Of a DNA stretch of 59,852 bases, positions 2,991-57,600 are shown piece by piece (within the stretch, counting starts at the first letter, position 1; the number at the start of each line of letters is the position of its first letter). Under the pieces are notes generated by a model that was not told where the DNA came from, made no database searches, and worked only from the letters and a program-made list of their open reading frames with translations. The position numbers were made by a program, and so were the translations under genes. The stretch lies in NCBI GenBank assembly GCA_026992635.1, contig JALWYU010000047.1:1-59852 (forward strand), read 5' to 3'. The stretch is from Bacteroidota bacterium. Lineage in GTDB: Bacteria; Bacteroidota; Bacteroidia; JAADEI01.

Positions 2991-3104
2991 ACTGTTGCGT
3001 GTACATTGATTATGGGTGGTGGGCAGGACAGGGCGAATTCCCGGACTATGCAGGTGTTCTGCCAGACAGGCGGTGTTGTAAACAGAAAGGAGCGGGGAGG
3101 GATG

Positions 3105-3177
3105 TGGGCCCGCCAGGATTCGAACCTGGGACCGATGGATTATGAGTCCACCGCTCTAACCGCTGAGCTACGGGCCC
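3105..3177 (-). tRNA. tRNA with CAU anticodon (elongator Met, or Ile2 if lysidine-modified). CCA is not encoded.
   Basis: The reverse complement reads GGGCCCGTAGCTCAGCGGTTAGAGCGGTGGACTCATAATCCATCGGTCCCAGGTTCGAATCCTGGCGGGCCCA. It has a 7-bp acceptor stem (GGGCCCG/CGGGCCC), a D arm (GCTC..GAGC), an anticodon loop (CTCATAA) and a T arm (CCAGG TTCGAAT CCTGG). Confidence 0.9.
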
Positions 3178-4039: not shown

Positions 4040-6172
4040 TCACCAGGCAAGGAGTTCTTCTATGAGTTGAGGCAGGCGGTTCCAGGGCAGGTAGGCGTCT
4101 TCTAAGGGGGCACTGAAGGGGATGGGTGTGTTGGCGGAGGCGACTCGTCGGATAGGGGCATCCAGGTAGGTGAACAGTTCTTCGGCGATGAATGCACTCC
4201 ATTCGGCGCCCACGCCAAACGTCAGGGAGGGCTCGTAGACAATGAGGACTTTTCCGGTTTTCTGGACGCTGGCACGGATGGTGTTGTGGTCGTAGGGCAG
4301 GAGTGTGCGCAGGTCAATGATTTCGGCGGACACACCCATTTTCTCTGTGATCTCCAGGCATTTGTGCACACCCCATCCGTAGGTGAGGATGGTGAGGTCT
4401 GAGCCTTCGCGGGCAATGCGCGCTTTTCCGATGGGGACGAGATAGGGTTCTTCCGGGACGGGTCCACGCACCGATCGGTACAGGTATTTGTGCTCAAAGT
4501 AGAGGACGGGATTGGGATCGGCAAGTGCACTGAGCAGTAGTCCTTTGGCGTCAAAGGGTGTGGCGGGGTAGACGACTTTCAATCCGGGCACCTGCGTAAA
4601 CCAACCTTCTAAGGAGGCGGAGTGGAAGGGTCCGCCCCGTACACCTGCGCCTGAGGGCATGCGAATGACGACGGGTGCGGGTTGTCGCCATCGCCACCAG
4701 ATTTTCGCCAGGTTCATAGTGATCTGGGTCATGGCGTAGGAGACGAAGTCGCTGAATTGCATTTCCACGATGGCGGGTCGCCCGCCAATTGCCAAGCCCA
4801 GGGCAACGCCCACGATTCCGGATTCACACAGAGGTGTGTTTCGGACACGGTCTTTGCCAAACTGGTGGACGAACCCTTTGGTGACTTTGAATACGCCGCC
4901 GTGCTCAGCGATGTCCTGTCCCATCAGGATGAGTCGTTCGTCCAGTTCCATTGCCTGGCGGAGGGCTTCGTGGATGGCGTCCACATAGCGGAGTGTCCGT
5001 GAATTCTTAGTGGTGGGTGGTTCTGTATAAGTGGGCAGCTGGTGGAGGGGTGTGGGGAATGTATTGGGCGGTGCCCAGACACTTTGCCAGTGTTTTTTCT
5101 GTGGGTTGGGATCGGGCGCGTTGAGTGCTTCGTCTAAGGCGGTGCGGACCTGTTGTTCCAGCTGGTGGCGAATTTCGCTAATCGTCTGTGGGTCAATGAG
5201 TTTTTCTTTGGTGAGGAAGGCGATGAAGGTCTGGACGGGGTCGCGTTGTGCCCACCAGTTGCGCAGGGGTTGTGGTACGTAGTCGGTGCCTGAGGCTTCT
5301 TCGTGGCCGCGCATTCGGAAGGTGACGCATTCCAGGACGAAGGGTTTGCCCTCCTGGAGAATTGTTTGTCGGGCATTGTGGACTGCTTGCATGACTGCCA
5401 GCACGTTATTGCCGTCTATGGATTGGAAGGGGATACCATAGGCGCGGGCACGTTCCGCGAAATAGGTGAGGGCGTATTGTTCGTAGGTGGGTGTAGAGAT
5501 GGCGTAGGCATTGTTTTCAATGATGAAGAGGACGGGCAGTCGCCAGACTGAGGCGATATTGAGTGCTTCGTGGAAGTCGCCTTCACTGGTGGCGCCTTCT
5601 CCGGTGAAGGCAACGACGATTTCGTGCTGGTTGGAGAGGCGCAGTGCGAGAGCGAGTCCGTCGGCAACTGGAAGGTTGGATGAGACGTGTGAGATCATGC
5701 CCACGATCCGGTAGTCGCGCAGTCCGAAGTGGAAGGATCGTTCGCGTCCTTGCGTAAATCCGGTTTCTTTGCCGAGGAGCTGGGCAAAGAGTGGAGTGAG
5801 GGGTACGCCTCTGGTGGTGAAGACGCCCAAGTTGCGGTGCATGGTGAAGAGCCAGACGGAGTTGGGTACGGCTAAGGTGGCTCCGACGGAGATGGCTTCC
5901 TGTCCCCAGGCTGAAAACCATTTGGCAATTTGTCCTTTGCGCAGCGCCAGGAGCATGCGTTCTTCAATGAGTCTGGGCAGGAGGAGGGCTTTCAGGATCC
6001 GGAGCAGTTGCGTGCGATAGGTGTTTATGTAGGGGCGGTAGTCAATGGGCTGGCGTGCGATGGGTGGGACCTGTTTCCACCAGGTTTCAGAGGGTTGGGA
6101 CTGGGGTTGCGTTTGGGTCTGGGTCTGGGCTGGGGAGCTGGTGGTGAGGACGGTCGTGGTGTTTTCGCTCAT
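4040..6172 (-). CDS. Fused 2-oxoacid dehydrogenase E1 component (alpha plus beta subunits in one 710-aa chain)
   Basis: The N-terminal half has a TPP-binding alpha-subunit pattern (GEGATSEGDFHEALNIA, IENNAYAIST). The C-terminal half is beta-subunit-like (MGQDIAEHGGVFKVTKGF, NTPLCESGIVG). The N terminus carries a low-complexity TQTQTQPQSQP tract. Confidence 0.9.
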   Translation of the reverse strand: MSENTTTVLTTSSPAQTQTQTQPQSQPSETWWKQVPPIARQPIDYRPYINTYRTQLLRILKALLLPRLIEERMLLALRKGQIAKWFSAWGQEAISVGATLAVPNSVWLFTMHRNLGVFTTRGVPLTPLFAQLLGKETGFTQGRERSFHFGLRDYRIVGMISHVSSNLPVADGLALALRLSNQHEIVVAFTGEGATSEGDFHEALNIASVWRLPVLFIIENNAYAISTPTYEQYALTYFAERARAYGIPFQSIDGNNVLAVMQAVHNARQTILQEGKPFVLECVTFRMRGHEEASGTDYVPQPLRNWWAQRDPVQTFIAFLTKEKLIDPQTISEIRHQLEQQVRTALDEALNAPDPNPQKKHWQSVWAPPNTFPTPLHQLPTYTEPPTTKNSRTLRYVDAIHEALRQAMELDERLILMGQDIAEHGGVFKVTKGFVHQFGKDRVRNTPLCESGIVGVALGLAIGGRPAIVEMQFSDFVSYAMTQITMNLAKIWWRWRQPAPVVIRMPSGAGVRGGPFHSASLEGWFTQVPGLKVVYPATPFDAKGLLLSALADPNPVLYFEHKYLYRSVRGPVPEEPYLVPIGKARIAREGSDLTILTYGWGVHKCLEITEKMGVSAEIIDLRTLLPYDHNTIRASVQKTGKVLIVYEPSLTFGVGAEWSAFIAEELFTYLDAPIRRVASANTPIPFSAPLEDAYLPWNRLPQLIEELLAW

Positions 6173-19475: not shown

Positions 19476-21233
19476 TTATGGGCAAGCTTGCTGTAAAGTC
19501 CCATGTGTACCGGCTGTACCAGAGAAATTGTAGGTGTTGACGGTGGTGCTGGATGGGAGAGCAACGTTGCTGGGCGAGACGGGCCAAGTTGTGATGTATG
19601 AAGCCGATTCACTGAAGCAACCCGAAGTACATGTTGTGCTGCCATCAGGATTCAGGACAATCACCAGGAAATCCGTACTGCCGTTGCCAAAAGAAGTGGT
19701 TCTTCCTAAGATAACAATGCGCTGGTTACTGGTTTCACCGATAGTAATGCCCTGATCATCACCATTTCCGCCAATGATTCTTGCCCATTTGAGGTTTCCG
19801 TTGGCATCCAGTCGGGCAACGTATACGTTATTACCGCCTTGTGTTCCTCCATTTGTAGTTGCTGTGACTAAAATGTCTCCATTAGAAGCAACGTAGCCCA
19901 TACCGGATGAATAGGAGGGTAACCATTCGGAGGAAGCGGCGGTTGCGCCTAATCGTTTTGCCCAAATGACATTTCCGGACAGGTCTATCTCTATGACTTT
20001 GATATCGCTGGATTCAATGCCTGCTGCAACGATATTACCGTTTGGGGCTTCGCCCAGCCAGTAGAAGGTTCCGCTTCCGTATTGCTTACACCATGCTGGT
20101 GAGAGATTCGCGTCGTACTGACAGATGTGTCCGTTGACACCTGCTGTGAATAGAGTACCATTCGTGTGTTTCTTTACTGCCCAGGGTCGGCTGTAAGAAA
20201 AAGCGGCTGTGATATTGATTGTAGAGAGATCCACTATAATCAGCTGTCCGGAAGCATCACCCACTGCGATTTTGTTGTTACCGAGGTACTCTATCGTTGT
20301 ACCCCAGGATATTGGATCCAGATAGTAAGTGTTTCCGATTGTATTGCCCGTGTTTGCATTGATTCTTACAAGGTAGTTACTCCATCCTCCAATGCCTATA
20401 GGGATCCATCCGGTTATGACATAATATCCTGCAGGTATTTTCTCTATACCTACAGCGGCATCCCAAGAGCCGTAGTCCATGGTGTATGTCCAATTCACTG
20501 TGCCTGTTGTGAGATCAACCTTGGCTACATATATATTTGTGCTGCCCGAACCACAAGAATTGCATTCACCGATCAGGACAGCATATTGTCCATCAATCAT
20601 ACCTGTATAGAGGAAGTCTTGTCCGGAGCCACCGATTGCCAGGCAGTATCCAATGCAAGAATCAGCCGTCACAGAAAGAGAAGTTGCCATACCGCATCCA
20701 CACTGGTTGCACACTTGAACACCAATTGTTCCGTCAGTTGTATCCGGTAAGACTTGCAGGGTTGCAGTACCTTGTCCGTTCAGCATTGTCCACCCAGGAG
20801 GCGTTTGCCAAAGGTATGTTGCTCCACCAGGACAGTCGCTTACTGTATACATGATCGTATCCCCGGTACAGGCAAAGGAGGGTCCATTAATTGTAGGTGT
20901 ACATGTGGGCGGCTGGCACAGTCGTGGGCAGGAGATGGTGTACCATTGATGTGTGAGCGTGTCGTAGACTTCTAAGCAGAAGGAGTCAATGTTGAAGATG
21001 ATGAGGGTGTGATCAGGGTTTTGAATAGCATTGCGTTGCTGTGTGGTGAGACGGGGTATAAGAAGCCCGCGTGAAGTATCCTGAAGTTCTAAGAGGGCAG
21101 TGGGTGCAGGATTTGTAGTGCCGATGCCGACGTTTTGTGCGAGGGTGGGTTCAGTCAGGCATGGGTAGAGCAGAACAGAGAAGAGAAGAGAAGAGAAGAG
21201 TAGAGTAGAGTAGAGTAGAGTAGAGTCTCCTGC
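19476..21233 (-). CDS. Secreted-protein paralog 1: shared N-terminal module plus Cys-rich linker plus propeller-like repeat domain. It currently has no in-frame start codon (phase-OFF or a pseudogene).
   Basis: My translation upstream of the track ORF (M at 20852) stays open to the TAA at 21234-21236. It reads AGDSTLLYSTLLFSSLLFSVLLYPCLTEPTLAQNVGIGTTNPAPTALLELQDTSRGLLIPRLTTQQRNAIQNPDHTLIIFNIDSFCLEVYD.... There is no ATG, GTG or TTG in those 127 codons. Confidence 0.7.
   Translation of the reverse strand, partial: AGDSTLLYSTLLFSSLLFSVLLYPCLTEPTLAQNVGIGTTNPAPTALLELQDTSRGLLIPRLTTQQRNAIQNPDHTLIIFNIDSFCLEVYDTLTHQWYTISCPRLCQPPTCTPTINGPSFACTGDTIMYTVSDCPGGATYLWQTPPGWTMLNGQGTATLQVLPDTTDGTIGVQVCNQCGCGMATSLSVTADSCIGYCLAIGGSGQDFLYTGMIDGQYAVLIGECNSCGSGSTNIYVAKVDLTTGTVNWTYTMDYGSWDAAVGIEKIPAGYYVITGWIPIGIGGWSNYLVRINANTGNTIGNTYYLDPISWGTTIEYLGNNKIAVGDASGQLIIVDLSTINITAAFSYSRPWAVKKHTNGTLFTAGVNGHICQYDANLSPAWCKQYGSGTFYWLGEAPNGNIVAAGIESSDIKVIEIDLSGNVIWAKRLGATAASSEWLPSYSSGMGYVASNGDILVTATTNGGTQGGNNVYVARLDANGNLKWARIIGGNGDDQGITIGETSNQRIVILGRTTSFGNGSTDFLVIVLNPDGSTTCTSGCFSESASYITTWPVSPSNVALPSSTTVNTYNFSGTAGTHGTLQQACP
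21172..21225. repeat. Pentanucleotide tandem repeat: 4 x AGAAG then 5 x AGTAG on the + strand (CTACT/CTTCT in the gene sense)
   Basis: Counted directly: AGAAG x4 at 21179-21198 and AGTAG x5 at 21199-21223. The tract encodes the hydrophobic core of the signal peptide of paralog 1. Confidence 0.95.
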
Positions 21234-21270: not shown

Positions 21271-21291
21271 TGTGTGTGTATGTGTGTGTGT
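21271..21291. repeat. TG/CA dinucleotide tract, (TG)4 TA (TG)5
   Basis: Read directly. It lies between the only upstream ATG (21307-21305, minus strand) and the pentanucleotide tract. Confidence 0.9.
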
Positions 21292-21628: not shown

Positions 21629-22696
21629 TTATTCTTCCCTTTCCCGAGAACCAAGCAGTTCATTCAGTCGGGCACAAACGCGCCGTCGTTGAAAAGGTTC
21701 TGAAGATTGCGGAGCACCCGGCACAGTGGATTGCGCAAGAAACCGACGCATCTGACGAAATAGACTCTCCACAGGATTGTTCGTGTAGATCAACCGGCGA
21801 ATCTCAGGCGGATAACGCAAATGTACTGTCAGGGCTTGAAACCGCTGTTACAACGAGCGCACAATGGAAGGATAGGTCCGTCCATATTGCTGGACAAAGG
21901 TTTGCAACAGTTGATGCGCATGCTGTGGGTTGTCTGCTTCAATCAACATTTGCCGTAGCAGGTTGCTTATGCGTTTTCGGTCTTGCTTACGGACTTTCGC
22001 TAGCCATTGCCGAAGCATGTGCAAAACACACAGTTGGTGCTGTGCGCCGGGAAAAACCTCAGCAATGACTTCGTCCAGTCCAGGCAGTCCATCAGTTACA
22101 ATGACCTCTACGTGTTTCAGTCCACGCTGACGAAGGCGCTCCAGCAATTCGCGGTAGCAATCCTTTTGCTCGCCATCGGCAACCACCACCTCAAAGTCTG
22201 CCACCTGCCTGTAGCCTTCATAGTTCAGAATCACCGCTACAAGCACTAAACAGGGCACGACCGTTTTCTGATACCACAGACGGATGCGGGCGGCATCTAT
22301 CCAAAGCGCAAAGGCTTTCTGTGGAAGTGCACTGACCCGAAAGCCCAGAATGTATTCCATCACTTCTATGATTCTGCGCCGGGAAAGCCCGGCAGCAAAC
22401 AATGCTAAGAAGACTGTGCTGAGGAGGTTCGTCATTCGTTGCCACCTGGGCGGAAGTAGTGATGGATAGAACTGTCCGGAGCGTGTTCGGGGCACACGCA
22501 ACCCTTCCACTTTACCCAGTTCGTCGTCCAGGAGTGTGCGTTCGTAGTAGCCGTTACCTCTGTCTTCGGGATGTTCTTCCAGCCGTTCTTCCCGTTCCTG
22601 GTTCATGGCTTTTTCCAGGGCTTCCTTAGCGATTTGTTGCTGTTGCTTTCGGATTTGCTCCTTAACTTGCTTATAGGTGAGTTTTGCTTTTTTCAT
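21629..22696 (-). mobile_element. IS256-family (Mutator-type) transposase gene, inactivated by one in-frame TAA and shorter than usual
   Basis: The N-terminal ORF (282 aa) has GLRVPRTRSGQFYPSLLP, WIDAARIRLWY and VIVTDGLPGLDEVIAEVFPGAQHQLCVLHMLR. The stop at 21848-21850 is in the same frame as the downstream QRFQALTVHLRYPPEIRRLIYTNNPVESLFRQMRR. The region between the RSGQF and DA motifs looks truncated. Confidence 0.8.
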
Positions 22697-23575: not shown

Positions 23576-24136
23576 TTGAATTTGACCATAAACGAACACC
23601 TGAAAAATCATAGAGCCATGAGGAAAATGGGTTTGCTGGCTACCGCATTACTCAGCTTGCTTGGACAACATGTTGTCGCACGTGTCGTTTCTGTAGAAAT
23701 TGAACTCCATGATTCATTACAGTACCAAGTGCCATGCAAGGGATACAGGAGAGTAATTTGCTCCGAAGAGGACCCACGAGTGGTTCTTTGCATTGGCTGC
23801 GGAAATCTTGCGTGTTGTGCCAGCGCAATTATCCATCCCAATTCAAAACTCATGCTGTTGAATGCGCTGGAGCACATCAAAGCGACCAGCACGGATTATA
23901 TTTTTGCAAATTTGGTTTCGGAAGCAATTCAGCAAGTAGTTCAGGGACAACTCAACGGCAGATTACTATATATCCCGCCTGAAGCAAATATCAGTGAGCA
24001 TGAAGCGTTAATGCTGTTTGATAGAGCATTAAAGGGTGAGGAGGAAGCAAAGCAAATGCTTCAGGAAATAAGAATCAGGATTCTCGCGTGGGCTATTCGT
24101 GATAACAAAATTTTCATCAAAGGGTGGGAACAATGA
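23576..24136 (+). CDS. Hypothetical secreted protein (orphan). The likely start is ATG 23618 (MRKMGLLATALLSLLGQHVVA).
   Basis: It has a signal-peptide-like N terminus, a Cys cluster (CIGCGNLACCASA) and a helical C-terminal half. The DNA is AT-richer than its surroundings. It overlaps the next ORF by 13 nt. Confidence 0.5.
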   Translation: MNLTINEHLKNHRAMRKMGLLATALLSLLGQHVVARVVSVEIELHDSLQYQVPCKGYRRVICSEEDPRVVLCIGCGNLACCASAIIHPNSKLMLLNALEHIKATSTDYIFANLVSEAIQQVVQGQLNGRLLYIPPEANISEHEALMLFDRALKGEEEAKQMLQEIRIRILAWAIRDNKIFIKGWEQ

Positions 24137-25656
24137 GATTTTCAATTAGCGCATGTATTCTCGCATGGGCGGAGCTGCTGACCAGCTCCGCCCAAACCTT
24201 TCTGCTTTTTAGCGAAAAAGACCTGCTTAAATATGACAGCACGCAGTGCAATGAAGGCGCATTGTATATCTTGAACCATAAAACGGCCTTTCAATGTGTA
24301 AAAGGAAAACTTTTTCGGCAACAAGGATATGTTTCCTACACTACAATTGCCGATGCAGGAAAGCAATATGCCCTTAGCCAAATCAACGCAGGTATTGATT
24401 CAGGTAAGGTGAAATGGTCAGTCTGCACGATCCAATGGCACAGAAAAGGCATCATCAAATACATAGACGTAAAGTGTCCGGACTCCATCAAATGGACGCA
24501 CGTTTGTCCCCTTCACTTTCCTTGCGGAAACCTCAAGTTTCAATACATTGACAACCAGGAATTGCTCAACCCCGACTCACACCTTCTTTATGTACGGGCA
24601 CTGGAGCCACCCAATCAGCTTTACGCCCTGTCCCTAAAGCAGAATAAGACAGAGCCATTGCGCTATGAGGGTAACCTGTTTTTCTTCAACGGGAAGTACC
24701 CTCTCGCAAAATACAAAATCAAGTTCGCATTCCCGGATTCTGTTTACCCCGACTTATTGGCAGCTCCATTGCTGGTCCATTATGACCCTACAAAGCTGGT
24801 TTTCATCTTTGCGTACGCATTTCGGAAAAGTATCGGGCTTCTCAAATGTGCAACCGATACCTGTCAATGGACAAACATATTTACTACAACCAGGACACCT
24901 TATCTAATTGGCGCATTATCAGGGAAATACCTCTTCTTCTTTGACGACGGCAAGCTGAAATACTTCAATCTAAGCCAGGAAAAAATTCACGAACTGGATT
25001 CATTCCCAACACATATGTACATTTACCTGACCGCTTCCCCCAAAGCCTCTTACTGGTGCTCGTGGTGCAGGCGCTACCAGCTCTGGCTGATCAACCCCTT
25101 TGCCGGAGTCCTATACAGATACGAGTTCAAAACAAAGAATGCAGAAAACGAACTTCTCAGCAGCAAAGAGATTTACATTTTAGACTCCAAAATTTACCAC
25201 AGCTATGTGAGCAGGCAAAACGAAGTAGATTCTGTATTCGCCCACGTCCCAGCATTGTGTGATGCCCAGCGCATCGCTGGAACAATCACGAGCGGAAGTC
25301 TTTTTCTGAGAGGAGTCCTTTCTGACAATACCATTTGGATATCTATGCAGAAGACGGTATTTCCTTGCGATAAATTCATAACACCCGAAAAGATTCATTA
25401 CGAGGAAATCATCCGTCTTGACCATGACTCACTGCGAAGATTCAGGACTGCCCACGAAAAAGACTGCTGGAAAACCGTAACGGACGATATGGATGAATTA
25501 TACAAATACCTGGTTTTCAATGTAGATATCGCTCCTATGCGACTGACAGAGCGCAACCAAATAATAGAGGTGTATGCGACAAACATCCTGGAATCAGCAG
25601 TAAACAAAACCACAGGAATATTGAAACGATTTCATATTCATATTAGCATGTTTTGA
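24124..25656 (+). CDS. Hypothetical secreted protein (orphan, 510 aa)
   Basis: A long uninterrupted ORF in AT-richer DNA, with the N-terminal signal-like sequence MRFSISACILAWAELLTSSAQ. I recognise no family. Confidence 0.55.
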   Translation: MGTMRFSISACILAWAELLTSSAQTFLLFSEKDLLKYDSTQCNEGALYILNHKTAFQCVKGKLFRQQGYVSYTTIADAGKQYALSQINAGIDSGKVKWSVCTIQWHRKGIIKYIDVKCPDSIKWTHVCPLHFPCGNLKFQYIDNQELLNPDSHLLYVRALEPPNQLYALSLKQNKTEPLRYEGNLFFFNGKYPLAKYKIKFAFPDSVYPDLLAAPLLVHYDPTKLVFIFAYAFRKSIGLLKCATDTCQWTNIFTTTRTPYLIGALSGKYLFFFDDGKLKYFNLSQEKIHELDSFPTHMYIYLTASPKASYWCSWCRRYQLWLINPFAGVLYRYEFKTKNAENELLSSKEIYILDSKIYHSYVSRQNEVDSVFAHVPALCDAQRIAGTITSGSLFLRGVLSDNTIWISMQKTVFPCDKFITPEKIHYEEIIRLDHDSLRRFRTAHEKDCWKTVTDDMDELYKYLVFNVDIAPMRLTERNQIIEVYATNILESAVNKTTGILKRFHIHISMF

Positions 25657-26181: not shown

Positions 26182-27621
26182 TTGAACTACTTTGAAGAAG
26201 TCCAGAAACTGTATCCGGATAAGAAACTGCAACTCAAGTACGTGAATGGTTCCTGGCATGTCCATGCCTACCAGAGCTGGTGGGACAAAGAGAAGAAACG
26301 CCCGGAGAAAACAGAGGAGTATCTTGGCACTATCAAAGAGGACGGTTTTCACCCACGCAGAAGGAGGTATCCCGGGCGGAAAAAGGGAGTGGAAATGGAG
26401 AAGGTAGAGGGGAGACTGATCGTTCGGGAGCGCAGTTGCGAATATGGCGCCAGCCAGGTATGCAGGCATTTTCTGGAGGGAGCCTTAGAGGGTTTGAAGG
26501 ATCAGATAGAAGAAGAGCGTGCGAAGGCGCTGGTGGGATTGGCGGTGCTGTGGGCTGTACATGGGTATGTGCCCCTGAAGAGGGTGGCGAGTGTGTGGGA
26601 GGACACGTGGTTGAGCCGGATGTGGGAGGAGGTGCGCATGGATGGCAGGAGGCTGTCGGAGTTACTGAGGCTGGTGGGCAGGCGAGTGGGGTTGCGCGAC
26701 CACGTGTGCGGCTACTTGCTTATGCGTTCTGGCAGTTCACGGATTCTGTACGACCTCACGCATGTGTTCACCTATTCAGAGGGTGTGCTGGATGGTGAGT
26801 ATGGCTGGAACGCAGAGAGGAGGTATGCGCCGCAGGTGCGGGTGAGTGTAGTCCATGATGGAGAAGGAGTGTTTCACATAGAGGCGTGGGCGGGCAGTCA
26901 AAGGGAAATAGCGGTGTTGAAGGCGTTGAAGGAGGGGCTGGAGCCTTATCTGGAGCGCAAGCAGGAGCTGGTGCTGGTCAGCGACAGGGGCATTGCCTCT
27001 TACCAGATGGCGGTAGATCTGCACCAGGAGGGGTTGAAATTTGTGATGCCTTTGCGCAAAAACTTCAGTATCATAGACTACATGCGAAGTTTTGGGGGGC
27101 ATTTCGCTATCAAGACAGACAGAGTGATTGCATGGAGTGAGCGAGAGGTGGAACTGCACGGCAACAAGATGCGTCTTTTGCTGTTTTGGGATACGAAACT
27201 TGAGGGAGAGCAAAAGCAGATGTGGCTGAACAGATACGAAAGAGGGGAGTTGGGCAAACAGGATGTGGAGGAGCGTTTTGTTCAGTGCGGGAAGATAGCC
27301 CTACTCACCAACACTTCTTTTTCTGCCGAGGAGGTATATTCGCTCTACAAGAGTCGTGCCTCCATAGAGGAGTGCATACGCCGTTTCAAAGACGCCCTGA
27401 ACATGGAAGGCACATATATACGCGACGACCACGCACTGGCTGGCTACTTCTTTGTGCTCTCCCTTGCGATGCCACTATGTGCTGATGCAAAAGCTAAGGG
27501 ATACCAAATTGCTGAAGCACTACAGTGTACAGGATGCCATCTGGGAGTTGAGAAAAATCCGGAAGGAGCCATGGATAGATGGCTGGCATCTTCGTCTCTT
27601 TACCAGAAGACAAAACCTTGA
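26182..27621 (+). CDS. IS4/IS1634-family DDE transposase (TTG start). The C-terminal end is possibly frameshifted.
   Basis: DDE candidates are ILYDLTH, LVSDRGI and the Y-x2-R-x3-E-x6-K signature YKSRASIEECIRRFK. After about 27478, alternative frames read ...LLKHYSVQDAIWELRKIRKEPWIDGWHL and LIEKLGLRTILGIN. These look like the usual family C terminus, which suggests one or two frameshifts. Confidence 0.8.
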   Translation: MNYFEEVQKLYPDKKLQLKYVNGSWHVHAYQSWWDKEKKRPEKTEEYLGTIKEDGFHPRRRRYPGRKKGVEMEKVEGRLIVRERSCEYGASQVCRHFLEGALEGLKDQIEEERAKALVGLAVLWAVHGYVPLKRVASVWEDTWLSRMWEEVRMDGRRLSELLRLVGRRVGLRDHVCGYLLMRSGSSRILYDLTHVFTYSEGVLDGEYGWNAERRYAPQVRVSVVHDGEGVFHIEAWAGSQREIAVLKALKEGLEPYLERKQELVLVSDRGIASYQMAVDLHQEGLKFVMPLRKNFSIIDYMRSFGGHFAIKTDRVIAWSEREVELHGNKMRLLLFWDTKLEGEQKQMWLNRYERGELGKQDVEERFVQCGKIALLTNTSFSAEEVYSLYKSRASIEECIRRFKDALNMEGTYIRDDHALAGYFFVLSLAMPLCADAKAKGYQIAEALQCTGCHLGVEKNPEGAMDRWLASSSLYQKTKP

Positions 27622-27981: not shown

Positions 27982-29832
27982 TTAAGGACAGATGTTGGTG
28001 AGTGTTCCGCCGGAGGAGGTGGATCCGCCGGAGCTGGTGGTGCCGCCTGAGCTAACTGTGCCGCCTGAGCTGGTAGTTCCGCCTGAGCTGACGGTTCCGC
28101 CTGAGCCAATCTGGCATCCGCCGGGACAATTTACTAAGTTGCCCTGGGCGTCAAGTTTGATTACGTAAATATCGTTGCTGCCAGCGCCAAAGGAGCTGGT
28201 ATACCCTGCAATGGCATAACCGCCGTCATTCGTCTGGATGATGGAGTTGCCCCTATCATTGTTTGCTCCGCCAATAGTTTTTGTCCACTGGAGAGTGCCG
28301 GAGGCATCCAGTTTTATTACATAAACATCGCCGCCAGCGCCAAAGGAGTTGGTATACCCTGCGATGACATAACCGCCGTCATTCGTCTGGATGATGGAGT
28401 TGCCTCCATCATCGTTTACTCCGCCAATAGCTTTTGTCCACTGGAGGGTACCGGAGGCATCTAGTTTTATTACATAGACATCATAGCCGCCTGCTCCAAA
28501 GGAGGTGGTATATCCTGTGATGATATATCCGCCATCGTTGGTCTGAATGATGGAGAATCCCAAATCGCGAATTGAGCTGCCGCCGATGGTTTTAGTCCAC
28601 TGTAGATTACCCTGCGCATTCAGCTTTACCACATAGACATCGTAGAAGCCAGCGCCAAAGGAGTTGGTATACCCTGCAATGGCATAACCGCCGTCATTCG
28701 TCTGAATGATGGAGTAGCCCAAATCGTTACTTGCCCCGCCAATGGCTTTGGTCCACTGCAGGTTACCGTTTGCATCCAATTTCACGACATAAACATCAGC
28801 ACCATCTGCGCCGAAGGATTGAGTCCGCCCAACAATAGCGTAGCCGCCGTCGGTGGTCTGGATGATGGCTTGCCCCGCATCGTAATTTGCTCCACCGATG
28901 GTTCTGGTCCACTGGAGGTTGCCGTTTGCGTCCAGTTTGACGACATAGACATCGTAGCTGCCTGCGCCGAAGGAGGCGGTGTATCCAGCGATGGCGAATC
29001 CGCCGTCGGTGGTCTGGATGATGGATTGACCATAGTCGTTATTTGCCCCGCCGATGGTTTTAGTCCACTGTACATTGCCTGAGCCATCCAGCTTTACCAC
29101 ATAAACATCCTGCCCTCCCTGCCCAAAGGAGTTGGTATACCCTGCAATGGCGTATCCGCCATCATTCGTCTGGATGATGGAGTAACCAATATCGCTATTT
29201 GTTCCGCCAATGGCAACGCAAAAAGCGTTGCATGAGTCGGCGGAGACGGAGATAGAAGTGGCGTTGGCGCATCCGCACTGGTTGCAGGGTTTGACGGAGA
29301 CCATTCCATCGGTGGTGTCAGGAATGACGCGCAGTGTGTCCGTGCCCTGTCCGGAGAGGATGATCCAGTTGGGCGGGACTGTCCACTGGTAGGTGGCGTT
29401 GGGGCAACCCGAAGCGATGTAGGTGGTGGTGTCGCCGGTGCAGGCGAAGATGGGTCCGGAGATGGTGGGTGAGCAAGCGGGTGGCTGGCAGAGTCGTGGA
29501 CAGGAGATGGTGTACCACTGTTGTGTGAGTGTGTCGTAGACTTCTAAGCAGAAAGAGTCAATGTTGAAGATGATGAGGGTATGTGCGGGGTTCTGGATGG
29601 CGTCGCGTTGCTGAGTGGTGAGACGGGGTATGAGGAGTCCGCGGGTGGTATCCCAGATATCTAAACGAGCAGTGGGTTCGGGATTTGTGGTTCCGATGCC
29701 GACGTTTTGTGCGAGGGTGGGTTCAGTCAGGCACGGGTAGAGCAGAACAGAGAAGAGAAGAGAAGAGAAGAGAAGAGAAGAGAAGAGAAGAGCCCTTCGC
29801 GTATGGAATGTTGTGTATTTGGGGCGGTGTTC
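27982..29832 (-). CDS. Secreted-protein paralog 2: shared N-terminal module plus eight ~47-aa SBBP-type beta-propeller repeats plus an SSGGT(V/T) tail. It currently has no in-frame start codon (phase-OFF).
   Basis: The frame is open from 29832, directly after the TGA at 29835-29833. It reads EHRPKYTTFHTRRALLFSSLLFSSLLFSVLLYPCLTEPTLAQNVGIGTTNPEPTARLDIWDTTRGLLIPRLTTQQRDAIQNP.... The first ATG/GTG/TTG in frame is at 29304. The repeat unit is GGxNxDxGxSIIQTxDGGYAIAGYTxSFGAGxxDVYVVKLDxxGNLQWTK. Confidence 0.75.
   Translation of the reverse strand, partial: EHRPKYTTFHTRRALLFSSLLFSSLLFSVLLYPCLTEPTLAQNVGIGTTNPEPTARLDIWDTTRGLLIPRLTTQQRDAIQNPAHTLIIFNIDSFCLEVYDTLTQQWYTISCPRLCQPPACSPTISGPIFACTGDTTTYIASGCPNATYQWTVPPNWIILSGQGTDTLRVIPDTTDGMVSVKPCNQCGCANATSISVSADSCNAFCVAIGGTNSDIGYSIIQTNDGGYAIAGYTNSFGQGGQDVYVVKLDGSGNVQWTKTIGGANNDYGQSIIQTTDGGFAIAGYTASFGAGSYDVYVVKLDANGNLQWTRTIGGANYDAGQAIIQTTDGGYAIVGRTQSFGADGADVYVVKLDANGNLQWTKAIGGASNDLGYSIIQTNDGGYAIAGYTNSFGAGFYDVYVVKLNAQGNLQWTKTIGGSSIRDLGFSIIQTNDGGYIITGYTTSFGAGGYDVYVIKLDASGTLQWTKAIGGVNDDGGNSIIQTNDGGYVIAGYTNSFGAGGDVYVIKLDASGTLQWTKTIGGANNDRGNSIIQTNDGGYAIAGYTSSFGAGSNDIYVIKLDAQGNLVNCPGGCQIGSGGTVSSGGTTSSGGTVSSGGTTSSGGSTSSGGTLTNICP
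29744..29792. repeat. Pentanucleotide tandem repeat, 8 x AGAAG (+ strand) = CTTCT x8 in the gene sense
   Basis: Counted directly: 29751-29790 is eight perfect AGAAG units, flanked by CAGAACAG and AG. The flanking sequence is the same as at 21171-21178. Confidence 0.95.
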
Positions 29833-30142
29833 TCATGGGCTGTATGTGTGGGGGCTTGGGCGTGTTGCATGGCTTTGGGATTTTGGTGGGTAGAGGTATT
29901 CTGGAGCCTCAAGAGTATGGTTAATAGGAAAGATAAGGATAACCCGGAAGATTTTTGGGGATGATTTTGCTATGGAAGTTGGCTTCAGGATGACGGGTAA
30001 AATGGGAAGGTGGGAAATGCTATTTGGCTGGCGAACTAAAGGGAAGAACAGGGGTGGGCTACCCTGAGGCGTTATGAGTTTTGGTGGGCGGTGCTGGTTT
30101 TGCAAAGGAGCTGTAATGCAAGTATTGAAGGGTTCTGGAACG

Positions 30143-31558
30143 TCAATAATAGATGACGACTCTGCCATTGCCACCTTTTTGCCCGTAGGTGTAGCAGGCT
30201 GTTGCGCCGGTGCCGCCCTGGGCACAACCTGGGCACAGGTCGGGATCGCCGGCATTGCCTGGTGTGGTGCCGGCTCCGGGCAGGATGATACCTGTTGGAT
30301 TCAGGACGAAGCTGTTTCCGCCGGCGCCGCCTCTGGCGCCACAGTCGCCAGAAGAACCGCTGCATGAGCTTCCGCAGGTGGTTGCCCCGCCGGTTCCGCC
30401 TGCGGATGCGCCGCCGCCCCCGCCTCCGCCGCCGGGTCCGTCGGCTCCACAGCTTGCTCCGGGTGTGCCGGCTGGTGTGGGTGCGGCACCGGTGTTTCCG
30501 CCGGCGGCGCCACAGGCACCGGCATTGCCATTTTGTCCGCCAGCACCGCCATGGCCACCTGCACCGGAGCAACCACTACCGCCGCCACCACCTCCGCCGG
30601 CGGCGGCAACGACCAAGGTACCATTGATAAGGACTGCTGAGCTGCCTCCGCCGCCACCGCCACCCCCTGACCCTCCTGAGGGTCCAGCCTGTCCACCATT
30701 GCCACCGTTGCCATAGCCCCATCCACCTGTTCCACCCGGGGCACTGGAACTACAATACCCGCCATTTCCGCCTTCGCCCACATAAATGGTCAAAGTATCG
30801 CCGGGATTGACTGCGATGGTATCGCTGGCGTAGGCGCCTCCGCCACCGTTGCCACCGGGGTTGCCACCGTCCACGCCGCCTCCGCCACCACCGGCGCCCC
30901 ATGCTTTAATCACAATGCATGAAACACCGTTGGGGACTATCCACTGCTGAGGGGCGCCAGTATAGTCAAAATAAAGCGCCTGGGGTGGTGATGTGGATAT
31001 GGTCAGGCAGGTCTGCGTGTTTGTACAGGAATCTGTGACGCAGAGTTGTCCTGATTGGAATGTGTCAGGGAAGAAGATACGGACGGAATCGGAGCCCTGC
31101 CCTGCTACGAGTATTGCTCCGCCGGAGACTGACCAGTGTTTAGTGATCAGACAGCCCTGCAAGACAAAGAGAAGTGTGTCGGGCAAACAAATCTGTTGCA
31201 GGGTAGTGGGTCCTGTAATGGCGACGGAAGTGCCGGTACATCCCCAGGGTGGAATGGTCACCCATTGCGTGCCATCCCAGTACTGGAACACCCGACAATC
31301 ACGGTTGTAAATAAGCAGGGCATTTGCGGGATTGACAATGGTGTTGCGTTGCTGCGTAGTAAGTCTGGGGATGAGTAGTCCGCGAGAGGTGTCGTGGATG
31401 TCTAGTCGGGCGGTGGGGTCGGGGCTTGTAGTGCCGATGCCTACGTTCTGGGCGAAGTTTACGGGGTTTGTGCAAAGGATTGCGGAGAGCCAGAGGGTAG
31501 TGGTCAGTATGTGGAGTTGTTGTAGAAGGGATGCGTGTGTGGTGTGGGTGGTGGTCAT
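30143..31558 (-). CDS. Secreted-protein paralog 3: shared N-terminal module plus a glycine-rich (GGxGG) C-terminal domain. This copy is intact.
   Basis: It reads MTTTHTTHASLLQQLHILTTTLWLSAILC...AQNVGIGTTSPDPTARLDIHDTSRGLLIPRLTTQQRNTIVNPANALLIYNRD, followed by WGAGGGGGGVDGGNPGGNGGGGAYA...IYVGEGGNGG and long Gly runs. There is no tandem repeat at its 5' end. Confidence 0.8.
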   Translation of the reverse strand: MTTTHTTHASLLQQLHILTTTLWLSAILCTNPVNFAQNVGIGTTSPDPTARLDIHDTSRGLLIPRLTTQQRNTIVNPANALLIYNRDCRVFQYWDGTQWVTIPPWGCTGTSVAITGPTTLQQICLPDTLLFVLQGCLITKHWSVSGGAILVAGQGSDSVRIFFPDTFQSGQLCVTDSCTNTQTCLTISTSPPQALYFDYTGAPQQWIVPNGVSCIVIKAWGAGGGGGGVDGGNPGGNGGGGAYASDTIAVNPGDTLTIYVGEGGNGGYCSSSAPGGTGGWGYGNGGNGGQAGPSGGSGGGGGGGGSSAVLINGTLVVAAAGGGGGGGSGCSGAGGHGGAGGQNGNAGACGAAGGNTGAAPTPAGTPGASCGADGPGGGGGGGGASAGGTGGATTCGSSCSGSSGDCGARGGAGGNSFVLNPTGIILPGAGTTPGNAGDPDLCPGCAQGGTGATACYTYGQKGGNGRVVIYY

Positions 31559-31627
31559 GGTGGTTTGGGATTTGGGGTGGTGGTTGTTAAATAAAGTTAA
31601 GGGGTTTTGGGGGATTTTTGGTTTTTG

Positions 31628-31723
31628 GGGGCGTTGGGGCGTTGGGCGCTGGTTTGCAGGGGGTTATGGCGCCGTACGGCGCCATAACCCCCTGCAAACC
31701 AGCGCCCAACGCCCCAACGCCCC
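31628..31723. repeat. Perfect 96-bp palindrome (two 48-nt arms), same family as 17802-17891
   Basis: All 48 pairs (i with 63351-i) were checked and are Watson-Crick. After one unpaired G (31627), four more pairs follow. It shares the core GCGTTGGGCGCTGG-N-TTGCAGGG-N-GTT-N-TGGCGCCGT with the first palindrome. Confidence 0.95.
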
Positions 31724-31790
31724 AAAACCAAAAAACCAATCCAATCCTCCATAACCCCACACACCTGTAAGTTGGTAAAAAAGTCCAGCG

Positions 31791-32549
31791 GTGTTGTTCA
31801 TGTCGGGCGCGTTCAGGATGTCTTTGCCTTTTCCCGTTGCCTTAGCTGTCCTTACAAAGAATGCGCAACGCACGTTGCCCGCACTCCTGCAACGGATGGC
31901 GCCTCATGTCCAGCGCATTTATATTGGCGATACGGGAAGCAGGGATCAGACAATTCAGATTGCGATTCAGTGGAATGCGGAAGTTTTCGTGCTGGACTGG
32001 CAGGGGTTCGGACCGACCAAAAATGCGTTGCTCGGGCGTGTGCAGGAGCCCTGGGTTTGGGTCCTGGATGCCGATGAAATCCCGCCTGTGCAAACAATTC
32101 AGCAGGCTTATGCACAGATTATTCGGGATCCTTCCCTGTGTGCAGTTTCGTTTGTCCGCCGGCATTATGTTGGCAGGCGCCGTTTCCGGTGGGGGACACT
32201 TAAACCAGACCGACGCATCCGGCTGATCCGAAAAGATGTCTGTCGGTGGACCGATGTGCCAGTCCATGAGGATATTCTTTGCAATGGGAAAGTTTATGTC
32301 TCGTCCATGCACATTGACCACTGGACAGCGTCCGATCTATCTGACTTTATTGAAAAAAATTTGCGATATGCACTGATCCGTCAAGCCACACGCTCGTCTC
32401 CAAAGCGGTTTAGAACGCTTCGGGCAATCTTTCATTTTTGGCGGGATTATCTTTTACGTCTTGGTTGCTTGGAAGGACGCGCAGGTTTCCTCTTAGCGTG
32501 CACGCGTGCTTATTGTAAGTTTCTGGAAAATACCTCTGTCCATGAATAG
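31791..32549 (+). CDS. Family-2 glycosyltransferase
   Basis: Has VLTKNAQRTL, IGDTGSRDQT and VLDADEI (DxD). The likely true start is ATG 31818 (MSLPFPVALAVL). Confidence 0.8.
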   Translation: MLFMSGAFRMSLPFPVALAVLTKNAQRTLPALLQRMAPHVQRIYIGDTGSRDQTIQIAIQWNAEVFVLDWQGFGPTKNALLGRVQEPWVWVLDADEIPPVQTIQQAYAQIIRDPSLCAVSFVRRHYVGRRRFRWGTLKPDRRIRLIRKDVCRWTDVPVHEDILCNGKVYVSSMHIDHWTASDLSDFIEKNLRYALIRQATRSSPKRFRTLRAIFHFWRDYLLRLGCLEGRAGFLLACTRAYCKFLENTSVHE

Positions 32550-54626: not shown

Positions 54627-57600
54627 TTAGAAGTCCAGGGATAGGGAGAAGAGGAGGACGGGTGGCAGGGCGATGAATTCTTCGTAGGGGTAGGCGATGT
54701 CTACGCGGAGCATGTAGCCGAGGATGAGGAAGCGCAGTCCCCAGCCCCAGCTCCACACGAAGGGTTCTCGCTGGTAGCGTGCGATGATGGTGATGGGTCC
54801 GTTGGAGATGATGTCCTGGTTGATGGGGTTTTCTTCGTCGTAGGGAGAGGTTCCGACCCAGGCTGTGCCGATGTCGCCGAAAGCGACGACCATCAGATTC
54901 TGGAAGAAGTGGGAAGTGGGGAAGAGCTGGAGGCTTCGGAACAGGTACCATCGGTATTCGGTGTTGATGAGGAGAGTTGACTTTCCGTTGCGGATGTTGA
55001 GTGGGTGGCCGCGCAGGGGCGTGACGATAGAGGCGAAACGCCACTGGTAGTTGGGTGCCGGTGGTGTGTTTTCCTGTGGCAGTGGGTTGAGCCAGCTCTC
55101 TACGCCGCCCAGGAGGAAGAGGATGGTGCTGGGTCCGAAGGAATGGGCGGCAAGTGTTCGGAAAGCCAGTACGCTCCATCGGTTGATTCGGATGTACTGT
55201 CGCCAGTCTATACCGAGTAAGCCCAGCCAGTCGTTGGCGGGGTAGAGGGTTTGTTGTGGGATAGAGAGGCTGTCAATTTTTCGTCGCCATTCAATCCAGA
55301 GGTGTCCGCGCAGTCCCCAGGGTAGGTTGATGCCAAGTGATCGGGTGTTGTTCCATTTGAGTGCGAGCCGTGCGCCTATCCATCGTGTAGTGAATGTGGG
55401 GATCTGGAGGGAGATGGGGTCGATGACGTAGAAGAGGAGTCGGTCGTATCGGAAGAACAGTTCGGTTTGGAGTGCGACGACTTCGGTGAAGGGGTATGTC
55501 CAGCTGTTGAGGAAGAGGTGTGTTCGGATTCGGTAGGGGAAGACCAGGTAGAAGAAGGGGAATTCGCCCTGGAGTTGCCGGTAGAAGTAGAGGAACTGGT
55601 AGTCCAGGCGTTTGCGCAGTCTGAGGAAGCGTCCGAAGAGTTCAATTTGGTCGGCGTTGGTGGAGATGCGGAATCCGCCTTCAAAGGTCCAGTCTTCCAT
55701 GAGGTCTGTGAGTGCGAGTCGGAAGAAGGGTGAGAGGTCGGGCAGGGGGTACTGGTCTGTGGGGAGGGTTTCCAGGGCGATGTAGGGCGTCCACAGGATG
55801 GAGTTGTCAAACTGGCTGACGAAGTACTGGAGAGAGAGCCGTGGGAAGTAGGGCAGGATTTTGCGTTTACGGGTTTGGGTTTGGGTAGTGGGGAGGACTT
55901 CTTCCTGGCTGAGGGGTGGGAAGTAGGGAGGCAGTCGTGTTTGTGAGGTTTGTGGTTGGGGCTGTTCTTCTTGTTCTTGTTGTTGTGCGGGAGGCAGGGT
56001 GGTCATGGGGGTGTGTAGGGTGGGTTTTGAGTCCGATGTATTGAGGGGTTTGGGTTTGTCGAGTCGTTGCCAGGGTTGCCAGAGGAGGTGTGGGTAGGCG
56101 TGAGGTCCTGTGCCGAGCATTCCGTGTGGTGAGAACCATGTGGTGGTCAGGGGTATGTAGGGCATTTGTGCGATTTCCTGGATGTAGATGGTGTCGCGGT
56201 AGACGGGCACATACCAGAGTGAATCAATTTGTTGCCACCATGTGGAGTCTGGGGGTTGGGGGTTGATGTAGATAGAGTCCTGGTAGAGGACGCAGGTATC
56301 CCATCGGACGAAGTAGGTGTCTGTCGTGAGTGTAGCCAGGTGGATAGAGGAGTCGGCGCGCTGGTAGACGAAGTAGGTGGTGGCGTGTTGCTGGAGGAGT
56401 GTTAGGGGCTGGAGGGAGGTGGGCAAATGGATGGTGGGTGGTGGTGGTGTGTTTTTGGTTTTGGAGAGTGGGTGGAAGGAGATTGTCCAGGTGTAGGAAG
56501 GAGGGGTTTGTGTCAGGAGGTAGATGCCTCGTTGTCCGGTTTGTGTTTTTCCGTAGGCGGTGTGGATTTGGTCGCCGGGTTGTGGTATTCGTTTCAGGTG
56601 GAGGGAGTGGACGTCCAGGAGGTAGGCGTCGGTTTCCCCGGCTTGTGTTGCGGTGAGGAGGATCTGGTCGGAGGTAAGGAAGGTGGCGGAATGGATGTCG
56701 TCAAAGTAGGGGAAGGGGTGTCGTGTTTTTTTCCATCGGGTTTTGGTTTGGTTTGGTCTTTGTTCTGTTTGTTTGGGTGTCCAGAGGATGAATTGCCAGT
56801 CTCCCTGTTTGTAGATGAATGCGGCGAGGGTGGATGCGTCGGGTGCGAGTGCGATGATGGGATGTGAGGGGTCTGTGGGGAAGTCCAGGTTTCGGAATCC
56901 GCCGCGCAGCAGGGTTTTTTGGGGTTGGAAACGGTTTCGTTTTTCATTCCATGTCCAGTATTTGATTTTCCATCTACCCATAGATTGGTGAGCGGTGAGG
57001 AGTGCGGTTTGGTGGGTACCGGTTATGGATGTGGTTGTCCAGCTTTTGGCGAGGAGAGGCGGTCGCCATCTACCCATTTTTGTAGTTTGTCGTCGTGTTG
57101 TGCAAATTGTTTGCTGGAGGGTATACATGGTTTGTTGCCACTGGTGGTGGAAGGAGTCGGGAGTCATGTGTGCGACGTAGAAGAGTGCAGTTTCTATGCT
57201 TTTGTCCTGGTAGGCGAGGGCGAGAAAGTCAATGAATCGGTTTGTGGGTAGATGCTGGTTCAGTGTGTACCAGAAGGTCATTCCTGCCAGGAGTGGGTTG
57301 CGTTTCAGGAGTTTGGCAAAACGGAGTTTATGCTGGGGTGTTGGTGGGGTGAGCCACAGGCAGAGGTCGGGCAGTGTGGCTTGCCATCCGTTGTTGACGT
57401 ATCGGAAGTAGGTTTCCACGAGCCATCCGGGCAGGTCGGAGCTTCCGGTGAGGGTACGGATGATGGACTGGAGTGCGCCGGCGAAGAGGGAACGGTCTAA
57501 GAGGATTCGGAGCAAGCCGTCGCGCAGTTGCTGGTCCAGGTTGGCGTAGGAACCCTGGAAGGCAACGAAGATTCGTGTTCCCTGGATGCGTGAGATCCAG

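Follow-up and report, generated by a model that had tools for sequence, protein, structure and literature searches.

How can a gene whose body is intact over 616 codons have no start codon in its own frame, and can such a gene be turned on again? This question is raised by paralog 2, a member of a family of secreted beta-propeller proteins, which lies on the minus strand of a 59,852-nt contig (JALWYU010000047.1, assembly GCA_026992635.1) of an uncultured bacterium of the phylum Bacteroidota. The whole contig is called the window below. In the signal-peptide region of paralog 2 the pentanucleotide CTTCT is repeated without error, and at the present number of units neither of the two ATG codons upstream is in frame with the mature protein. 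We consider it probable that this tract is a slipped-strand translational switch, based on a simple sequence repeat (SSR), of the type known from the Neisseria opa genes, that it evolved independently of them and that it works as a reversible switch. The features of the locus are listed here in the direction of transcription, n being the number of CTTCT units.

29868..29870, minus strand: ATG start conserved in the family; reads into the mature protein at n=4, 7, 10 and 13, and at n=8 runs into TGA 29729-29727
29834..29836, minus strand: second ATG, specific to paralog 2; reads into the mature protein at n=3, 6, 9 and 12, and at n=8 runs into TGA 29725-29723
29833..29835, minus strand: TGA that closes the mature-protein frame just 5′ of the leader, overlapping ATG 29836 as ATGA
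29749..29792, minus strand: perfect pentanucleotide tract CT(CTTCT)8CT in the h-region of the signal peptide, with LLFSS permutations in all three frames
29693..29748, minus strand: conserved 3′ part of the leader (..VLLYPCLTEPTLAQ|NVGIG), from the alignment of paralog leaders
27982..29832, minus strand: intact open reading frame (ORF) of 616 codons plus stop (stop codon at 27984-27982)

Eight CTTCT units in the signal-peptide region had been pointed out in a sequence-only reading of the window, and this is borne out. The minus strand from 29792 to 29749 reads CT(CTTCT)8CT, for which Tandem Repeats Finder gives a period of 5, 8.8 copies and 100% matches. At 44 nt it is the longest period-5 run of the window; in 200 dinucleotide-preserving shuffles the corresponding run reached 18 nt at most and 13 nt on average. 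The three-unit probe CTTCTCTTCTCTTCT occurs nine times versus 0.01 expected by chance, and all of these occurrences are in the leaders of two paralogs. The repeat contains no stop codon, and its three frames read LLFSS, FSSLL or SLLFS. Thus, any in-frame length keeps a workable hydrophobic core of the signal peptide. As five is not a multiple of three, each unit gained or lost shifts the frame of the mature protein relative to the start.

The mature-protein frame reads ...KYTTFHTRRALLFSS upstream of the tract. It is open from 29832, is preceded by the TGA at 29835-29833 and has its first ATG, GTG or TTG at ATG 29304, all of which the sequence-only reading had described correctly. Because of this the gene caller reports only a 440-aa piece (P0008), beginning at ATG 29304. 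The frame of ATG 29836 reads MRTPPQIHNIPYAKGSSLLFSS..., and that of ATG 29870 reads MQHAQAPTHTAHENTAPNTQHSIREGLFSS...; the latter is the third-frame ORF 29727-29912, under whose coordinates the switch had been proposed.

To follow the frames we rebuilt the locus in silico with 3 to 14 CTTCT units and read it from both ATG codons. With 4, 7, 10 or 13 units the gene is ON, ATG 29870 being joined to ...LLFSVLLYPCLTEPTLAQNVGIG..., and with 3, 6, 9 or 12 units it is ON from ATG 29836. With 5, 8, 11 or 14 units no start is joined and the gene is OFF. Every ON product has a plausible signal peptide, which ends TLAQ|NVGIG. Paralog 2, with its 8 units, is therefore OFF and one unit away from ON in both directions; only lengths of n = 2 mod 3 are OFF.

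The two ATG codons differ in conservation. We aligned the leaders of paralogs 1, 2 and 3 from the window, paralog 4 (on the scaffold L022), P0013 (L001) and one family member from L016. An ATG is invariant in all six, following a conserved A-rich CCAAAATCC..AAAC.GCC motif, and in paralog 2 this is ATG 29870. The codons before the tract agree in the frame of this ATG as well (HSIREG|LFSS in paralog 2, HPVGRR|LFSS in paralog 4 and HPVSRR|LYST in paralog 3). ATG 29836 has no counterpart among the other aligned leaders. It was nevertheless on ATG 29836 that the earlier proposal had been built. Its reading of that frame as MRTPPQIHNIPYAKGSSLLFSS... was right, and so was its arithmetic, since 9 or 6 units do fuse this ATG to ...LLFSVLLYPCLTEPTLAQNVGIG in silico, but the stop codon of the frame is TGA 29725-29723 and not 29715-29713, an error of 10 nt. 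That the gene is one unit from an in-frame start holds for the gain of a unit; the conserved ATG 29870, which needs the loss of one unit or the gain of two, had been missed. The core idea of a slipped-strand contingency locus is retained here, backed by paralogs with 4, 8 and 9 units and by the match to opa, with the choice of ATG and the stop coordinate corrected.

Paralog 2 is not alone in having a repeat in its leader. The following features belong to the two other family members in the window.

30143..31558, minus strand: paralog 1; N-terminal module as in paralog 2, leader ordinary, in frame and free of repeats, body different and rich in glycine
21271..21291, minus strand: interrupted (CA)n tract ACACACACACATACACACACA of paralog 3, about 10 units, between the conserved ATG 21307-21305 and the pentanucleotide tract
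21179..21223, minus strand: pentanucleotide tract (CTACT)5(CTTCT)4 of paralog 3, 9 units, with the same 3′ flank as in paralog 2
19476..21233, minus strand: mature-frame ORF of paralog 3, open just after TAA 21236-21234, with no in-frame start

A fourth member, paralog 4 (L022, 7643-9535), is located on a different scaffold from this sample, which shares the unusual base composition of the window. Its leader consists of a perfect (AC)20, a spacer and CT(CTTCT)4CT, and is in frame, giving a 630-aa product that starts MTTGSYTHTHTHTHTHTHTIYIRLANYAHPVGRRLFSSLLFSVLLYPCLTEPTLAQNVGIG. Paralog 3 has the same order of elements, with the conserved ATG followed by the (CA)n tract, a spacer and the pentamer tract, and the frame of its ATG meets a TGA stop right after the (CA)n tract. 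The shared leader cassette is thus found with 4 units in the ON state (paralog 4), with 8 units OFF (paralog 2) and with 9 units OFF (paralog 3). The rule for the conserved start, ON at n = 1 mod 3, holds for paralog 4 only. The gene callers cut both OFF paralogs to internal starts, which leaves 440 aa of paralog 2 and 458 aa of paralog 3.

The first 60 nt 3′ of the tract (29748-29689 in paralog 2) are identical at 58/60 positions in each pairing of paralogs 2, 3 and 4. We considered gene conversion of the leader as a source of this similarity, but the case for it is weak, as later windows of the module still show 54-56/60 identical positions. The tracts themselves bear a footprint of slippage. 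In paralog 3 the variant CTACT is present in five adjacent units, which can only arise by unit duplication, so slippage has acted on this tract. In P0013, from the related genome GCA_027048825.1 (L001), the homologous stretch is CT-rich and non-repetitive (CTTCTGTCTCCTCTGTTCCTCCTTTCTTCCGCTCTGCTTTACCCG), and the perfect repeat is therefore a recent derived state.

The (CA)n tracts are a potential second frame switch in series with the pentamer tract. According to the simulation, paralog 3 would be ON only after changes in both tracts, the CA tract by any number of units other than a multiple of 3 and the pentamer tract by +1, -2 or +4 units. The (CA)n tracts encode THTH... in the n-region of the leader, and are found in paralog 3 (21271-21291), in paralog 4 (L022, 7659-7698) and in L016 (1-28). 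The last of these, from another sample, is a (CA)14 run in a family leader at the edge of a contig.

The protein downstream of the tract is well defined. Paralog 2 has an N-terminal AQNVGIG...LIPRLTTQQR...NIDSFCLEVYD module, a PKD_6 domain and about seven delta-60/DUF5122 beta-propeller repeats of 52 aa; GGTxSS repeats and a conserved GGTLTNICP follow in the C-terminal part. The N-terminal module is PF26696 by precomputed annotation in homologs. The full-length proteins P0004, P0005 and P0007 of related metagenome-assembled genomes (MAGs), which have ordinary signal peptides, match the ORF with 72-74% identity across 92-98% of the ORF. Paralog 2 thus belongs to a Bacteroidota family of secreted proteins made up of the AQNVGIG module, PKD_6 and a delta-60 beta-propeller. 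The nearest species-representative genomes with the family are assemblies named ‘MAG: Bacteroidetes bacterium’, and its relatives in GTDB (MAG Bacteroidetes bacterium S141_50 and others) have ordinary short signal peptides without repeats. At the DNA level the beta-propeller repeat is seen as a 156-nt (52-aa) unit in 6.6 copies at 28184-29214, and the GGTxSS repeats as 18-nt units at 28004-28106. The C-terminus of the family, ...GGTLTNICP, has no recognizable C-terminal domain of the type IX secretion system.

The closest known counterpart of the tract is found in Neisseria. The opa genes carry CTCTT coding repeats in the region of the leader peptide and switch by slipped-strand mispairing (PMC3960869; bioRxiv 10.1101/2020.09.16.300947); 6, 9 or 12 repeats are in frame, and 4 or 8 are out of frame. 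The likeness of paralog 2 to opa of N. gonorrhoeae and N. meningitidis extends to several points. CTCTT is a rotation of CTTCT, and in both cases the coding strand carries the unit within the hydrophobic signal-peptide core, where it encodes LLFSS-type repeats; in paralog 2 these stand directly before VLLYPCLTEPTLAQ. The repeat of paralog 2 is perfect, has a unit not divisible by 3 and lies between the start codons (ATG 29870/29836) and the AQ|NVGIG cleavage region. As in opa, the number of units sets the frame of the start codon relative to the mature protein, here an intact body of 616 codons, and there are several paralogous loci with their own repeat numbers, some ON and some OFF.

There are differences as well. 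Neisseria belongs to the Betaproteobacteria, and Opa is a beta-barrel, as opposed to the AQNVGIG module, PKD_6 and delta-60 beta-propeller of a protein from an uncultured member of the Bacteroidota. The paralog 2 product matches models of PKD_6, of the DUF5122/delta-60 repeat and of the SBBP beta-propeller, and its relatives in the PDB are CylK-type propellers only; among these domain and structure-database matches, no homology to the Opa beta-barrel adhesins was found. The likeness to Opa is one of mechanism only. A second SSR, (CA)n, stands in series in two of the three paralog leaders, and paralog 2 has two ATG codons in two frames. Switching is experimentally established in opa; here it is predicted from the sequence.

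The mechanism we propose is as follows. The pyrimidine pentamer between the start codon and the cleavage region of the signal peptide sets the frame of the mature protein. Replication slippage would change the number of units at appreciable frequency, and the population would consist of cells with different combinations of surface or secreted beta-propeller proteins in the ON state. This would serve as bet-hedging, for instance in the face of phage, of grazers or of a change in attachment substrates.

Three other explanations have to be weighed against such a switch. The one that survives best, which we nevertheless judge to be unlikely, is that the tract is a neutral microsatellite born in a G-poor, low-complexity leader, and that paralogs 2 and 3 are pseudogenes of a redundant family, inactivated recently and in effect permanently, without any selected switching. 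Several observations count against a selected switch, and a number of them speak directly for this explanation. A tract of random length would be OFF with a prior probability of 1/3, and the OFF state alone is therefore of no statistical weight. The strand composition is extreme. On the plus strand of the window G makes up 33% and C 20%, and the GC skew is +0.25 overall and up to +0.45 per 5 kb, whatever the orientation of the genes; owing to this asymmetry, plus-strand genes encode proteins rich in G, V, W and R and minus-strand genes proteins rich in T, H, P and Q. The coding strand of the paralogs is strongly depleted of G, which favors the neutral birth of CA and CT microsatellites. Paralog 3 is out of frame twice over, which looks more like decay than like a tuned switch, and there are insertion sequence (IS) elements on the flanks of paralogs 2 and 3.

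Frameshifted or split family members without long repeats are also found in relatives. The leaders of the L016 member at 2167 (~2040-2170) and of P0055 in L023 (~2780-2860) are out of frame with the ATG and contain only short repeats, (CA)4 and (CCTTTAT)2, and one family gene is split into P0122 (116 aa) and P0091 (483 aa). Inactivation, or error in the assembly of MAGs, is therefore not rare in the family. A protein-database search with an artificial leader in the ON state plus the module yielded seven candidates, none with LLFSS. Finally, the paralog 2 tract likewise has 8 units in a second assembly of the source sample (BioSample SAMN10217877), ENA scaffold_1153, so that there is no length variation between the two assemblies.

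What argues against the pseudogene explanation is the state of the genes outside the tracts. Over 616 and 585 codons the bodies of the OFF paralogs 2 and 3 are free of stops and frameshifts, although their dS (synonymous divergence) from their paralogs is about 1 to more than 2. The three bodies, compared with one another at a dS from about 0.5 to more than 2, have a ratio of non-synonymous to synonymous divergence (dN/dS, Nei-Gojobori) of 0.17-0.23 overall and of 0.11-0.13 for the first 180 codons, the values for paralog 2 vs paralog 4 being 0.17 and 0.13. Given these ratios, the paralog proteins have been functional through their divergence. Neither disruption of the body nor relaxed selection, the marks of a decayed pseudogene, was thus found, and the lesions of both genes are confined to the hypermutable repeat tracts. 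Moreover, the tracts are at exactly the same position of the leader in three paralogs, of which one is in frame. One unit more or less restores paralog 2, and with a perfect 8-unit tract its inactivation is therefore intrinsically reversible. Intact bodies under purifying selection are what contingency genes look like; a very recent inactivation fits them too.

An artifact of assembly or consensus is improbable. On this explanation the true dominant length would be 7, 9 or 10 units, or paralogs would have been mis-joined across about 100 shared nucleotides, and the gene would simply be ON. The sequence does come from a metagenome assembly, and a tract shared by three paralogs together with a near-identical 60-nt flank is the kind of sequence at which mis-joins typically arise. 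Two assemblies of the same sample also disagree on the 5′ part of paralog 4. The ENA assembly has a call of 630 aa, and P0120, on an NCBI contig of 25,757 nt together with P0014, corresponds to residues 229-630 of it (402 aa), with an internal GTG start. The two assemblies must differ somewhere in this 5′ part, possibly in a tract, and the discrepancy gives a weak hint of heterogeneity. In addition, the ENA scaffold has a gap in a palindrome near paralog 2.

On the other side, ENA scaffold_1153 (37.3 kb) and the 59.9-kb contig were built differently, and they are identical through 7.3 kb, apart from the N10 gap in the palindrome; this covers the whole of paralog 1-paralog 2 with the 8 units included. 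The leader of paralog 3 is identical in the two assemblies as well. Ordinary short reads span a tract of 44 nt, and the sequence 5′ of the tract is specific to each paralog and continuous with unique flanking genes.

That the protein is made whatever the repeat number, by non-canonical initiation in the mature frame or by programmed frameshifting on the repeat, is very improbable: the frame 5′ of the tract (...KYTTFHTRRALLFSS) would make a good, positively charged n-region, but between TGA 29835-29833 and the tract it holds no ATG, GTG, TTG, CTG, ATT, ATC or ATA, only ACG, and the repeat has no known slippery heptamer or stimulatory structure and is not a homopolymer of the kind that permits transcriptional slippage.

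Further copies of the locus were sought in other data. An exact DNA scan of one genome per species with the flank of the leader gave no match, and a metagenome scan with the end of the tract plus its flank gave one unrelated chance match only. Taken together with the protein-database search, these scans brought up the leader in no second strain or sample. Exact-protein look-ups of paralog 1, P0011, P0120 and P0025 returned no records. The Logan contig of paralog 3, from run SRR14510437, in which an identical paralog 3 protein is present, ends 88 nt upstream of the internal ATG, short of the tract. The sample labels JOHN19-1 and REYS20-1 may point to studies of deep-sea vents. A scan for sigma-70 promoters and terminators between paralogs 1 and 2 remained at background level, the sigma-70 model being unsuited to Bacteroidota promoters.

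The surroundings of the paralogs contain a number of other elements. A Mutator/IS256-type transposase (21848-22696, minus strand), apparently truncated C-terminally and with an extra reading frame downstream, and a DDE_Tnp_1 (IS4-like) transposase (26182-27621, plus strand) flank paralogs 3 and 2, and a 510-aa ORF of low GC content lies between the two transposases (24124-25656). The GC skew falls to about 0 at 20-25 kb and at 35-40 kb, and these low-skew segments may have been acquired or inverted. A 160-nt palindrome (31596-31755), with 80-nt arms that are 83% complementary and no loop, separates the start of paralog 1 from the divergent gene at 31791. The N10 gap of the ENA scaffold falls exactly on it, and a similar hairpin is found 5′ of P0013 in L001 (~3010-3110). 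The palindrome could be a terminator, a regulatory element or a REP-like element.

Two other repeat arrays of the window were noted. An array of seven TTTGG units at 56742-56776 was considered as a similar switch and rejected, as it is degenerate and in frame within a coding region. A hexanucleotide array of 7.5 GGGTCT units with 76% matches (6092-6134) lies at the 5′ end of a 710-aa gene (4040-6172, minus strand). It encodes TQTQTQPQSQ and is in frame, and therefore provides no frame switch.

Apart from opa, single traits of the locus recall other phase-variable systems. The lic loci of Haemophilus influenzae have (CAAT)n repeats with alternative ATG codons in different frames, and their product is a cytoplasmic enzyme of lipooligosaccharide biosynthesis. 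As in paralog 2, the length of the unit is not divisible by 3, the repeat stands just 3′ of more than one start codon in different frames, and more than one length class is ON. In contrast to paralog 2, the lic unit is a tetranucleotide and there is no signal peptide; the second ATG of paralog 2, for its part, is not conserved among the paralogs.

In Helicobacter pylori the outer-membrane protein genes sabA, hopZ and oipA carry dinucleotide CT repeats in the 5′ coding region. They resemble the (CA)n and (AC)20 tracts of paralogs 3 and 4 and of L016 in being 5′ coding dinucleotide SSRs in paralogous genes for surface proteins. The unit here differs, being CA; it codes for THTH in the n-region and is combined with a pentanucleotide tract. 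Slipped-strand control is described for SabA (PMC2715451).

Phase variation by SSRs has been described mainly in the host-adapted genera Neisseria, Haemophilus, Campylobacter, Helicobacter, Treponema and Gardnerella, and that of Bacteroides is by DNA inversion (PMC11868660). The invertible promoters of Bacteroides come from the same phylum as paralog 2 and have the same general purpose, namely stochastic ON/OFF expression of surface structures. They work by site-specific inversion of a promoter, however, and neither a promoter flanked by inverted repeats nor an invertase is associated with the paralog 2 locus. A limited literature search brought up no opa-like SSR switch reported from Bacteroidota.

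Beyond the single locus, we tentatively suggest that an uncultured and apparently environmental member of the Bacteroidota has independently invented an opa-like multigene contingency system, in which a leader cassette of (CA)n and (CTTCT)n would give combinatorial ON/OFF surface repertoires. We regard this as possible. If it is true, bet-hedging by the same pentamer would be a convergent solution, the unit being among the few that are hydrophobic and free of stop codons in all frames, and SSR-based bet-hedging, so far described mostly from host-adapted species, would have a wider range.

If the paralog 2 locus does switch, it would be a textbook case of convergence, the identical CTCTT unit occupying the identical place of a signal peptide when neither phylum nor protein is related. 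It would also carry a warning for annotation, since calls from internal starts, such as those of 440 and 458 aa, hide both the leader and the switch. Switching would further point to contingency loci in environmental communities, in which phage, predators or substrate are likelier agents of selection than an immune system.

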